Virus genome (UHGV): UHGV-1351569
Strand: one strand, 5' to 3'
DNA: 64,000 nucleotides
From: a virus
The position numbers and the translations under genes are program-made. Every line of letters starts with the position of its first letter. Positions within the stretch are counted from its first letter, which is position 1. A model generated the notes under the pieces. It saw only the letters and a list, made by a program, of their open reading frames with translations, was not told the DNA's origin and searched no databases. This document shows positions 1 through 2,653 of this stretch, piece after piece.

Positions 1-123
1 GAAAATATTGATAGGGCGTATAAAGGTTTACCTCCTATTCAACCCAAGAAATCGATTATCGTTGAATTTTTAAAAGCTCGTAAAGCTAAAGTATGTCCTG
101 TTATTGAATATAAGGCTGAATGA
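1..123 (+). CDS. 3' end of an upstream gene running off the window start (partial)
   Basis: Open frame from nt 1 to TGA at 121-123; stop overlaps the next ATG (ATGA junction). Confidence 0.4.
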   Translation, partial: ENIDRAYKGLPPIQPKKSIIVEFLKARKAKVCPVIEYKAE

Positions 124-1133
124 TGAAAACAGTAATGAAAAGCTATTTTGGTAGTCATCTTTATGGAACTTCTACCCCAGAATCTGATGTAGATTTTAAA
201 GAAATCTTTGTTCCTCCTGCTCGCGATATTCTTATCGGAAATGTCAAAGAGCATATGAGTAAAAACACTAACAACACATCATCTAAAAACACTAAAGATG
301 ATATTGACCATGAACTATACAGTCTTAAGTATTTCTTTAAATTAGCAGCAGATGGTGAAACCGTAGCATTGGATATGCTCCACACTCCACCTGAGCTAGT
401 GGTTAAATCTGATTTACCTGATGTATGGAAATTTATCCAAGACAATCGTTCACGGTTTTATACAACTAACATGAAATCCTATTTAGGATATGTCCGCAAG
501 CAAGCTTCTAAATACGGTGTCAAGGGTTCTCGTTTGGCCGCATTACGTGATGTATTGAAAGTAGTTAATCAAATCCCTGAGCAATGGGTTGATTACCAAG
601 AAGACGGCTCCATTAAGCAGCGTCGCACTAAAGTTGAAGATATTAAGCATCGTCTTCCAGAGAACGAATTCTGTGAATGGGTATTCCATAATCATGAGAA
701 AACAGGTCCACAAACGTTCTACACTGTGTTGGGTCGTAAATATCAAACAACGCTTTCTCTTATTGAGCTTAAGCAGTCACTGAATAAATTAGATGCTGAA
801 TACGGCGAACGTGCTCGTAAGGCTGAAGCGAATGAGGGCATCGACTGGAAAGCTCTGAGTCATGCTTGTCGTGGTGGACTCCAACTATTGGAAATTTACA
901 AAACTGGTGACTTAGTCTATCCACTTCAAGACGCTCCATTTATTCTCGACGTGAAGTTGGGTAAACATCCATTTAAAACTGTTCAAGAGTTTTTGGAAGA
1001 TGTGGTCGATCAAGTAGAAGCAGCATCCATTGAAGCTTCTAAGAACGGTATGCAGCAAAAAGTAGACATGGGTTTCTGGGATGACTTCCTTGAGAGGGTT
1101 TATCTTGAAAACCACCGAAGTTATTATAAATGA
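120..1133 (+). CDS. Nucleotidyltransferase-fold protein (Pol-beta superfamily motif), 337 aa, function unknown
   Basis: N-terminal GSHLYGTSTPESDVDF matches the G-S-x(9-13)-D-x-D minimal nucleotidyltransferase signature; hairpin terminator follows. Confidence 0.65.
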   Translation: MMKTVMKSYFGSHLYGTSTPESDVDFKEIFVPPARDILIGNVKEHMSKNTNNTSSKNTKDDIDHELYSLKYFFKLAADGETVALDMLHTPPELVVKSDLPDVWKFIQDNRSRFYTTNMKSYLGYVRKQASKYGVKGSRLAALRDVLKVVNQIPEQWVDYQEDGSIKQRRTKVEDIKHRLPENEFCEWVFHNHEKTGPQTFYTVLGRKYQTTLSLIELKQSLNKLDAEYGERARKAEANEGIDWKALSHACRGGLQLLEIYKTGDLVYPLQDAPFILDVKLGKHPFKTVQEFLEDVVDQVEAASIEASKNGMQQKVDMGFWDDFLERVYLENHRSYYK

Positions 1134-1135
1134 TA

Positions 1136-1159
1136 GGGAGCCTTCGGGCTCCCTTTTTT
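1136..1159 (+). terminator. Intrinsic terminator hairpin (GGGAGCC-TTCG-GGCTCCC) plus T6
   Basis: Perfect 7-bp GC stem, UUCG tetraloop, T-run. Confidence 0.7.
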
Positions 1160-1183
1160 ATTTCAAAATTTTTTCACAAAACG

Positions 1184-1213
1184 GTTTACAAGCATAAAGC
1201 TTTATGGTACTAT
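1184..1213 (+). promoter_or_regulatory. T4-type early promoter (GTTTAC ... TGGTACTAT), cassette copy A
   Basis: GTTTACA -35, about 17 bp spacer, extended -10 TGGTACTAT; preceded by AT-rich TTTTTTCACAAAAC UP-like element. Confidence 0.6.
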
Positions 1214-1247: not shown

Positions 1248-1994
1248 ATGAAAACTGTAACTATCAATAAGGGTATCTACTTCGGTAAAGAAATCTCTGG
1301 AACTTTTGAGCTCTTAGGCGAATGGTTCCCAGATAATGCTCCGGTAGATGCACAAGGAGATGGTAAAGTTTTTGTTGAAATTGACGGTAAACGTCGCGGT
1401 GTTTGGGTTTACAAATCAGATATTTCATATGATGGTGTAAAAGTTGAAGAAGTTAAAGAATCGTATGAAGATATGAAAACCCGCATTAATAAAAGATTTA
1501 ATGTTATGGGAATGATGACGAATGGTATTATTAATGGAAATATTCGTTCATTGATTATCTCTGGTGCAGCAGGTATTGGTAAAACGTATTCTTTAGATAA
1601 AGCTTTAAATAAAGCAAATGATATTGGATACATTGAATATAAAAGCATTAATGGTAAAATCTCTGGTATTGGTCTTTATGAGCAGCTTTGGAATAATCGT
1701 GAAGAGAATTCTGTCCTTTTGATTGATGATGTGGATGTTTTCTCTGATATGGACATTCTTAATCTTCTAAAAGCTGCTCTGGACACTGGAGAGACCCGTA
1801 AAGTCTGCTGGAGCACGGCGTCTTCTTACTTAGAAGAAAAAGGCATTGAGCGTGAGTTTGAATTTAAAGGAACGATTGTTTTTATCACAAACGTTGACAT
1901 TGACCGCGAATTAGACCGTGGTACTAAACTTGCCCCCACACTTACAAGCATTAGTGTCCCGCTCGGTTTATTTGGATTTAGGCGTTCACACTAA
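1248..1994 (+). CDS. P-loop ATPase, N-terminal part (Walker A GAAGIGKT, Walker B LLIDDVD); frame ends shortly after a C5 run
   Basis: ORF track 1236..1994 with ATG at 1248 behind a GGAG RBS; Walker motifs read directly from the translation. Confidence 0.65.
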   Translation: MKTVTINKGIYFGKEISGTFELLGEWFPDNAPVDAQGDGKVFVEIDGKRRGVWVYKSDISYDGVKVEEVKESYEDMKTRINKRFNVMGMMTNGIINGNIRSLIISGAAGIGKTYSLDKALNKANDIGYIEYKSINGKISGIGLYEQLWNNREENSVLLIDDVDVFSDMDILNLLKAALDTGETRKVCWSTASSYLEEKGIEREFEFKGTIVFITNVDIDRELDRGTKLAPTLTSISVPLGLFGFRRSH

Positions 1995-2217
1995 TGAAGA
2001 AATTATGGTCAGGGTTGAAGATGTTATTCTTTCAACTGACATGATGCAAAAGCGCGGTCTTTCTGATGAAGAAACTTATAAAGCATTATCATGGATGAAA
2101 GTTAATGTTAATCGTTTACGCAATGTTTCACTGCGTACTGCTCTTTATCTTGCTGACTTTATTATGACCGACAAAAACGGTTGGGAAGAAATTGCTGAGG
2201 TTACTCTTCTGAAATAA
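1918..2217 (+). CDS. Probable C-terminal continuation of the ATPase in the +1 frame (frameshifted gene or pseudogene)
   Basis: 99-codon open frame overlapping the 3' end of the previous ORF, no separate ATG or RBS; frames switch around CCCCC at about 1933-1937. Confidence 0.45.
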   Translation: MVLNLPPHLQALVSRSVYLDLGVHTNEEIMVRVEDVILSTDMMQKRGLSDEETYKALSWMKVNVNRLRNVSLRTALYLADFIMTDKNGWEEIAEVTLLK

Positions 2218-2623: not shown

Positions 2624-2653
2624 GTTTACAAGACTGTTCCTCTGTGGTACTAT
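2624..2653 (+). promoter_or_regulatory. T4-type early promoter, cassette copy D
   Basis: GTTTACA, spacer, TGGTACTAT; identical leader ...ATCAACTACGGAGGAACAGAAAATG. Confidence 0.6.

Follow-up and report, generated by a model that had tools for sequence, protein, structure and literature searches.

The orthologue of T4 nrdC.11 in a virus genome as a long-form member of the RlaP nucleotidyltransferase family, with a probable role at RNA 3' ends

The gene at the edge of the window (the whole stretch of 64,000 nucleotides from the virus genome UHGV-1351569 that was analysed here) is the orthologue of nrdC.11 of phage T4, which is widely conserved in the T4-type phages, and its product almost certainly belongs to the RlaP family (Pfam PF10127), of which it represents a "long-form" member. 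The protein is very likely an active nucleotidyltransferase (NTase), as predicted here, and, by analogy with the characterised RlaPs, it probably acts on the 3'-OH of RNA, when repair and other roles at RNA ends are taken together. The gene is already known and does not represent a new kind of enzyme. Given that the idea of a repair role has also been published, the present finding consists of the correct identification of a known, uncharacterised gene, and not of a discovery.

The gene and its transcriptional surroundings

The ORF of 337 amino acids ends at the TGA in positions 1131-1133, and both this ORF and the G-S-x10-D-x-D motif that the sequence-only reading had reported in it are real and were located in the window (Table 1). 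Two start codons may be considered, the ATG at 120, which yields 337 residues, and the ATG at 123, which yields 336 and is the equivalent of the start annotated in T4 and in Shigella phage SF2-1, with an AAGG at 112-115 lying 4 nt from the former and 7 nt from the latter.

Tequatrovirus genomes align with positions 1-2400 of the window at approximately 98% DNA identity, and the protein sequence matches that of SF2-1 at 100% identity and that of T2 at 99%. The T4 counterpart (NP_049709.1, 55435..56445 on the minus strand, product "nucleotidyltransferase") shares with the gene of the window its place just upstream of nrdC.10 and its length of 336 amino acids, whereas the homing-endonuclease gene mobD, which overlaps the start in T4, is replaced in the window by another small gene, as in SF2-1.

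Table 1. Coordinates of the features of the nrdC.11 region in the window.
Feature	Position	Strand	Basis
3' end of the upstream gene, which runs off the window	1..123	+	ORF check
CDS, orthologue of T4 nrdC.11	120..1133	+	ORF, PF10127, PHROG 388, start comparison
Pol-beta NTase signature G11-S12-x10-D23-x-D25, GSHLYGTSTPESDVDF, residues 11-26	150..197	+	Conservation, 138 homologues
D61-H62-D63 on beta-strand 62-68	300..308	+	AF2, conservation, hhalign
D85 in the ALDMLH helix, further conserved acidic residue (96%)	372..374	+	Alignment
Helix pair 119-150 with Y124, Q128, K131, Y132, G136 and R138 (YxxxQxxKYGxKGxR)	474..569	+	AF2, alignment
Beta-rich insert, residues 151-213, within the helical domain	570..758	+	AF2 secondary structure, conservation
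C-terminal-domain motif DWKALSHACR, D242-R251	843..872	+	Alignment
Intrinsic-terminator-like hairpin (8 bp, 6 G-C pairs, loop TTCG) and T-run, directly after the stop	1135..1164	+	Sequence

The stop codon of the upstream ORF (TGA, 121-123) overlaps both of the candidate start codons, an arrangement which, as read from the nucleotides, suggests translational coupling with the upstream gene. At the other end, the terminator-like hairpin is followed by a promoter-like site at 1185-1213 (TTTACA-17-TACTAT, with an upstream TG), just before nrdC.10. Given this overlap with the upstream ORF, and the hairpin and promoter-like site that come after the gene, nrdC.11 ends an upstream unit and is not the first gene of its block, which means that the earlier placement of the gene at the "head of the early block" does not hold, this impression having arisen because the gene sits at the edge of the window.

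The neighbouring ATPase had been described as frameshifted, and the AAA ATPase gene (the orthologue of nrdC.10) is indeed split, by a single additional C within the C-run at 1929-1933 in comparison with T4 and SF2-1. Several of the closest genomes, IME339, KNP5, KNP1 and ECO4 among them, have an aligned length of 2,399 nt where the window has 2,400 nt.

A functional coupling of nrdC.11 to the AAA ATPase NrdC.10 was considered and rejected, on the basis of the terminator and the promoter-like site that lie between the two genes. The more distant Klebsiella phage Miami and Vibrio phages D491s and 11895-B1 have no AAA gene annotated beside their homologues, the genes downstream of the homologue in Aeromonas phage AsFcp_2 encode unannotated hypothetical proteins, and an AAA gene lies two ORFs downstream in Acinetobacter phage PhaR5. 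Among the neighbour clusters of the 80 bacterial and archaeal loci described below, no recurrent cluster of AAA ATPases was seen.

Family assignment, conserved residues and predicted fold

The motif by itself is weak evidence, because its looser form, G[SG]..Dx[DE], recurs four times in the 32,077 residues found in the stop-free stretches of at least 60 amino acids in the six frames of the window (with two of the four in a single open stretch of 901 residues, at approximately 26-28 kb), in which the strict form, GS-x(9-13)-D-x-D, occurs once. The profile of PF10127 ("RNA repair pathway DNA polymerase beta family") is matched with 43.8 bits, above the gathering cut-off of 23 (E 3.3e-11), by residues 7-135 on profile positions 23-142 of 249, and PHROG 388 ("nucleotidyltransferase") is matched over the full length of the protein with an E-value of 7e-137. 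Similar results were obtained for the relatives of the protein, given that 137 of 138 diverse homologues also match PF10127. The profile search had been proposed as the means of exposing a spurious motif, and supports an NTase instead; together with the predicted fold and the structural neighbours, these matches confirm the assignment to the Pol-beta superfamily that had been made from the letters alone.

Searches with the protein gave no match in NCBIfam or among the PADLOC profiles, and no CD-NTase/SMODS profile of Pfam or PADLOC was matched, cGAS/CD-NTase chains also being absent among the top PDB matches. The MNT profile (PF01909) reached 13.9 bits, under its cut-off of 21, and the PolyA_pol head domain of the class II CCA-adding enzymes and poly(A) polymerases (PF01743) was not matched at E <=0.1.

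Homologues were found by tBLASTn in 1,518 phage records, most of them Straboviridae of Escherichia, Klebsiella, Shigella, Aeromonas, Acinetobacter, Vibrio and Enterobacter, with some jumbo phages, and in more than 1,400 phage records the gene is intact along 80% or more of its length. An exhaustive HMMER search of 1.84 billion representatives returned 3,421 clusters at E <=1e-3 and 830 50%-identity clusters at E <=1e-30, most of them with full-length matches at 35-55% identity.

In an alignment of the 138 diverse homologues, residues G11, S12, Y132, H248, R251 and P268 are invariant, while D23, D25 and K244 are conserved in 99% of the sequences, D63 in 97%, D85 in 96% and D61 in 95%, with K131, R138, K279 and others conserved in at least 90%. 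The catalytic residues are unchanged across homologues that range from 30% to 100% identity. The elements of the Pol-beta catalytic signature, i.e., the G-S pair, the D-x-D, and a third conserved carboxylate, are all present, and the third metal-binding carboxylate is probably D63 (or D61), the former of which is aligned by hhalign with the conserved Asp of the "lDinGWD" of the canonical short RlaPs.

Approximately 280 residues had been described as being of unknown fold, a description that is contradicted by the AlphaFold2 (AF2) model, by the full-length structural matches and by the HEPN-type bundle. The model, which was built on the homologue alignment with a pLDDT of 94.8 and a pTM of 0.85, begins with the sheet and helices of the NTase domain (residues ~3-118), which are followed by the helix pair (119-150), the insert, further helices (214-308), and a long terminal helix. 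Structure prediction, which had been recommended for the placement of the C-terminal domain, thus provides a helical domain at 119-308 and a final helix at 317-336, and the C-terminal part is confidently predicted to comprise the remainder of the NTase domain and a KNTase/HEPN-like helical domain with a beta-rich insert.

In the structure search, the C-terminal domain was also matched by HEPN-type helical bundles, and Foldseek returned full-length matches to further NTases of phages, some of them short forms of 234-287 amino acids, with the matches in the PDB being limited to weak ones to NTases (E 0.0076 or worse). The structural neighbours include KNTase/ANT(4'), 3c18, LinB, AAD(9) and MNT/HEPN-related chains, and the first four of these share with the protein the architecture of an NTase domain with a C-terminal helical bundle. 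When the PDB was searched by sequence, with either the protein or the 138-sequence profile as the query, no real match was returned, the two matches of the profile (E 0.35 and 0.86) being noise.

The insert at residues 151-213 is the most variable region of the protein, with a regional conservation of 0.26 versus approximately 0.55 elsewhere, and marks out the long, NrdC.11-like form, the short RlaPs being some 60-70 amino acids shorter than NrdC.11. When the alignments of the long and short RlaPs were compared by local hhalign, only residues 2-91 were covered, and the C-terminal fragment 205-337 had no match of its own in Pfam. A forced global alignment pairs K244-x3-H248-x2-R251 with the K-x3-Y-x2-R of the short forms, with negligible confidence, and is taken here as a hint only. 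As the C-terminal half of the long form is left unmatched by Pfam and hhalign, its substrate specificity could differ from that of the Pseudomonas enzymes.

Bacterial and archaeal relatives in RNA-repair operons

The C-terminal motif, in the form DWKAx[SH]HAxR, led to 156 bacterial and archaeal loci with full-length relatives at 35-55% identity, of which the best 80 were analysed by clustering the neighbours found in a flank of up to 6 kb and confirming the main clusters by Pfam. These clusters include RtcB (PF01139, E 3e-124), RtcA (PF01137), Ro60/TROVE (Rsr), Hen1 (PF12623), and a Pnkp that combines a kinase, a calcineurin-type phosphatase and a ligase domain of the T4-Rnl1 type (PF09511, E 1.4e-44).

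RtcB, RtcA, Ro60/TROVE, Pnkp or Hen1 lies in the flank at 17 of these best 80 of the 156 loci (HMM counts), often at 0-30 nt from the long RlaP and on the same strand. Chance co-location would be expected in about 1 in 80, given no more than one copy of each gene per genome, a value that is an estimate and not a computed statistic. A short RlaP of approximately 250-290 amino acids, which matches PF10127 end to end (175-212 bits), is found directly downstream of the long form at 19 of the same best 80 loci, and at 50 of the 80 the flank contains no RNA-repair gene and no short RlaP in tandem, many of these contigs being short or phage-like. The apparently "fused" NTase ORFs of 400-760 amino acids in some high-GC bacterial loci were rejected as artefacts of ORF calling that result from spurious upstream starts or wrong frames.

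A Nitrosospira contig (L042) has the order Rsr - x - RtcB - RtcA - long RlaP - short RlaP - Hen1 - x - Pnkp, where the short RlaP lay inside the match range and stands outside the count of 19. Given the RNA-repair genes that surround it, the NrdC.11-like long form is itself an RNA-repair-associated clade, for which the neighbourhood of RNA ligase and RNA-repair genes is found in bacteria, with the phage ligase genes being located elsewhere in the genome.

A close comparison is with the Pseudomonas RlaP of the rtcB-rlaP-rtcA operon, with which NrdC.11 shares PF10127, the catalytic Asp motif and, in the bacterial members of its clade, the adjacency to RtcB and RtcA, and which it would also resemble, as judged from the AF2 model, in having an NTase domain, a helical domain and a terminal helix. 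On the other hand, NrdC.11 is longer by 60-70 amino acids, with its insert, has a C-terminal domain that is unalignable by Pfam and local hhalign, and falls in a separate SSN cluster, and its bacterial long form often stands in tandem with a short RlaP.

This frequent tandem pairing suggests that the role of the long form is related to, yet not identical with, that of the canonical RlaP, and the presence of the tandem in approximately a quarter of the bacterial loci examined, in RtcB/RtcA/Rsr or Pnkp/Hen1 operons, indicates that the two forms are probably not redundant. A stronger claim, that the long NrdC.11-type proteins, with their beta-rich insert and divergent helical domain, differ in function from the canonical RlaPs and form a second kind, with another end or nucleotide specificity or working as a pair with the short RlaP, is doubtful.

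A further comparison is with the bacterial Pnkp/Hen1 system, in which, in several genomes, Pnkp is followed after 0-14 nt by an NrdC.11-like gene, and in which the ligase domain is of the Rnl1 type, Pnkp and Rnl1 being separate proteins in T4. Given the T4-Rnl1-type ligase domain of this neighbouring Pnkp, the Pnkp, Rnl1 and NrdC.11 of T4 may be seen as a split equivalent of the bacterial operon, although a Hen1-like methyltransferase is missing beside nrdC.11 in the phage, and the genes of T4 are scattered.

A proposed part in tRNA repair and the alternative readings

The repair of tRNA by Pnkp and Rnl1 of T4 in response to PrrC is the textbook example of the reversal by a phage of host RNA damage. 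[quoted passage not shown] In the jumbo phages, the distribution of RlaP mirrors that of the RNA ligases (Iyer et al. 2021, PMC7824862).

Studies on the RlaPs of the rtcB operons of two Pseudomonas species were reported by Carruthers, Fatma and Huang in a preprint of December 2025 (10.64898/2025.12.29.696909), where PfRlaP and PaRlaP extend RNA at its 3'-OH by one or two NMPs (or dNMPs), with neither DNA nor protein being labelled. These enzymes favour Mn2+ and cleaved-tRNA mimics, require an RNA 3'-OH primer, stop after one or two additions, accept single-stranded RNA, and label full-length species of the size of tRNA and rRNA in total E. coli RNA, and in such a mimic PfRlaP acts preferentially on the 3' end at the break, as compared with the one on the acceptor side (10.64898/2025.12.29.696909). 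Combined with ligation, the RlaPs partly rescue the aminoacylation of a tRNA that lacks one nucleotide of the anticodon loop, with the authors' own caveat that untemplated addition restores the right base in only a fraction of the molecules (10.64898/2025.12.29.696909). The crystal structure of PfRlaP comprises an NTase domain, a helical domain and a terminal helix that packs back on the NTase domain, and the same preprint names T4 NrdC.11 as an RlaP of uncharacterised function, in SSN cluster 5 versus 1a (10.64898/2025.12.29.696909). A literature search found no experiments on T4 NrdC.11 or on any long-form RlaP.

On the model of these enzymes, D23, D25 and D63 of NrdC.11 would hold two divalent metals (with Mn2+ being favoured in the characterised RlaPs) and would activate the 3'-OH of a broken RNA, onto which one or two untemplated NMPs would be moved from an NTP. 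The broken RNA would probably be the 5' half left by cleavage of a tRNA in its anticodon loop, and would lie in the cleft between the NTase and helical domains, which K131, Y132, R138, K244, H248 and R251 would line, and the extended 3'-OH end would be sealed to the 5'-phosphate half by the phage Pnkp (pseT) and Rnl1 (rnlA). In this way, the phage would restore tRNAs that are missing a nucleotide removed by an anticodon nuclease of the RloC type, which Pnkp and Rnl1 alone would not be able to do.

That the phage protein is active, what it acts on in vivo, and its cooperation with Pnkp and Rnl1 are all inferred here, and on balance it appears reasonably likely that NrdC.11 takes part with them in the repair of tRNA breaks. 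The narrower proposal, that NrdC.11 specifically counters the nucleotide-excising anticodon nucleases, is put forward as a tentative one. In a genome-reduction study of T4, the segment nrdC.11-mobD.3 was among the large fragments lost from viable mutants (PMC9825161), and this loss is consistent with an accessory role, because counter-defence genes are expected to be dispensable.

The numbers of NrdC.11, Rnl1 and Pnkp homologues are nearly equal within the phages of each host genus, such as Klebsiella (286/287/286), Shigella (83/83/83), Acinetobacter (69/69/70) and Enterobacter (56/56/56). This co-occurrence fits the repair model, although it may simply reflect shared Straboviridae ancestry, and it was rejected as proof of a joint role, given that the Straboviridae have many genes in common. 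A tBLASTn search of the phage records with a short RlaP returned 80 records, most of which belong to jumbo phages of Pseudomonas, Brevundimonas, Caulobacter and Burkholderia, with Escherichia unrepresented, the T4-like phages being without the short form. The proximity of the homologue to a CCA-adding enzyme gene in Vibrio phage 11895-B1 is also counted in favour of the repair model.

Some of the same observations may also be read as pointing to an NTase that works on RNA 3' ends outside anticodon-loop repair, by rebuilding the CCA ends of tRNAs or by tailing host or phage RNAs and thus altering their stability. The labelling of full-length tRNA- and rRNA-sized species by the RlaPs and their acceptance of single-stranded RNA would be in keeping with this, as would the homologue in Vibrio phage 11895-B1, which has a gene for a CCA-adding enzyme approximately 0.5 kb upstream, and the distance of about 80 kb that separates nrdC.11 from pseT and rnlA in T4. 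Such a role is rather unlikely, however, in view of the absence of similarity to the PolyA_pol/CCA family, of the preference of PfRlaP for the break end over the acceptor-side end, and of the bacterial clade being tied to the ligase-based repair of RtcB and Pnkp/Hen1, and not to CCA enzymes or degradosome genes. The loss of nrdC.11-mobD.3 from viable T4 mutants could similarly be attributed to the gene being a remnant, dispensable or of no catalytic relevance, that linkage alone has kept conserved, a reading that is scarcely credible for a gene that is intact in so many phage records, and whose catalytic residues persist throughout the range of identities and in the 830 clusters noted above.

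The structural neighbours open other readings, given that KNTase/ANT(4'), LinB, AAD(9) and the MNT/HEPN-related chains, the HEPN-like nature of the C-terminal bundle, and the divergence of the C-terminal half from the canonical RlaP would all be compatible with the nucleotidylylation of a protein or a small molecule, either as an MNT-like AMPylation of a HEPN toxin or as a modification of the aminoglycoside type. This is quite improbable, and the protein does not have the make-up of an MNT antitoxin, i.e., an NTase of approximately 100-150 amino acids beside a HEPN toxin gene, being 337 amino acids long and having a small ORF and the AAA ATPase as its neighbours. More improbable still is the synthesis or mimicry of a nucleotide signal to subvert host defence, in the manner of the CD-NTases or of the oligo-dA synthesis of HalB, which is unsupported by the gene context and by the SMODS/CD-NTase and PADLOC profiles, and is at odds with enzymes that depend on an RNA 3'-OH primer and stop after one or two additions. 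The match to Hailong HalB, at 16% identity, is confined to 131 residues in the NTase core, and the two proteins differ in the lack of a correspondence between their helical domains, of a PADLOC match, and of a common gene context. Among the roles suggested in the sequence-only reading, that of an RNA-modifying enzyme is therefore retained, on the strength of the RlaP family and the bacterial RNA-repair operons, and those of an antitoxin, a nucleotide-signal synthase and an agent of interference with defence signalling are set aside, as no PADLOC, CD-NTase or MNT profile is matched; the antitoxin, signal-synthase and protein-modifying readings find no specific support.

Finally, with tRNA-break repair as the preferred reading, the presence of an RlaP in T4 would be a direct and testable answer to RloC, in which the nucleotide is put back before ligation. 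If NrdC.11 is the missing third enzyme of the Pnkp/Rnl1 pathway of T4, it would explain how the T-even phages could escape nucleotide-excising anticodon nucleases such as RloC, and the distinction between the long and short forms, together with their tandem pairing, could guide the choice of the enzymes to be assayed.

Immediate surroundings of nrdC.11 in the phages

The start of nrdC.11 is not flanked in the same manner in all of these phages, given that in T4 it is overlapped by the HNH homing-endonuclease gene mobD, whereas in both the window (1-123) and Shigella phage SF2-1 mobD is absent and a different small gene occupies its place. Between nrdC.11 and nrdC.10, at the point that corresponds to window position 1222, SF2-1 also presents an insertion of 483 bp with a DUF4031 gene. 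Two promoter-like sites in the window, which are identical to each other, resemble the early promoters of T4 (see the table).

The orthologue of nrdC.10 is broken into two ORFs by one surplus C in a run that reads CCCCC in the window and is one base shorter in T4 and SF2-1. Among the genomes closest to the window, several (IME339, KNP5, KNP1, and ECO4, for example) likewise align to positions 1-2400 with one base fewer. The extra base stems either from a sequencing error in the homopolymer or from an inactivating mutation private to this phage.

In Vibrio phage 11895-B1 (locus L088, 1-3421), a gene for a CCA-adding tRNA nucleotidyltransferase lies approximately 0.5 kb upstream of the NrdC.11 homologue, and its annotation joins two pieces, with another ORF nested within, a split which may reflect an intron or a homing element.

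Features of the window and loci with RlaP tandems
Feature	Location	Details
Promoter-like site	window 1185-1213	upstream of nrdC.10; TTTACA, 17-nt spacer, TACTAT, TG before -10
Promoter-like site	window 2625-2653	upstream of ORF at 2682; TTTACA, 17-nt spacer, TACTAT, TG before -10
nrdC.10 orthologue (AAA ATPase)	window 1248-2217	frameshift at 1929-1933; PHROG 1250
Long then short RlaP tandem	L009, L011, L019, L027, L028, L038, L042, L054, L055, L057, L063, L069, L072, L073, L081, and others	
Composite RNA-repair locus	L042, contig CAADGK010000054.1	uncultured Nitrosospira

Names and structural relatives of NrdC.11

Many of the GenBank and UniRef entries for NrdC.11 orthologues are labelled “thioredoxin”, one is labelled “HNH homing endonuclease”, and nearby nrdC.x genes carry similar wrong labels; the mislabelling of NrdC.11 looks like an error that has spread from the locus name nrdC. 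The structural model of NrdC.11 is matched by the baculovirus HE65 and ORF132 proteins (Foldseek against BFVD, E 5e-4 to 2e-3; ranks 33, 35, and 37); these insect-virus proteins may represent modules of the RlaP type.

Tandem RlaP genes and RNA repair in bacteria

Among the loci that encode full-length NrdC.11 relatives (the best 80 of 156), approximately one quarter of those from bacteria have a long, NrdC.11-like RlaP (~320 aa) followed directly by a canonical short RlaP (~250-290 aa), often with overlapping stop and start. No description of this pairing was found in the accessible literature. One such tandem, in L042, is part of an array encoded entirely on one strand and ordered Rsr (TROVE), a small ORF, RtcB, RtcA, long RlaP, short RlaP, Hen1, an ORF, and Pnkp; this array unites the repair system based on a 3'-P ligase with that based on a 5'-P ligase.
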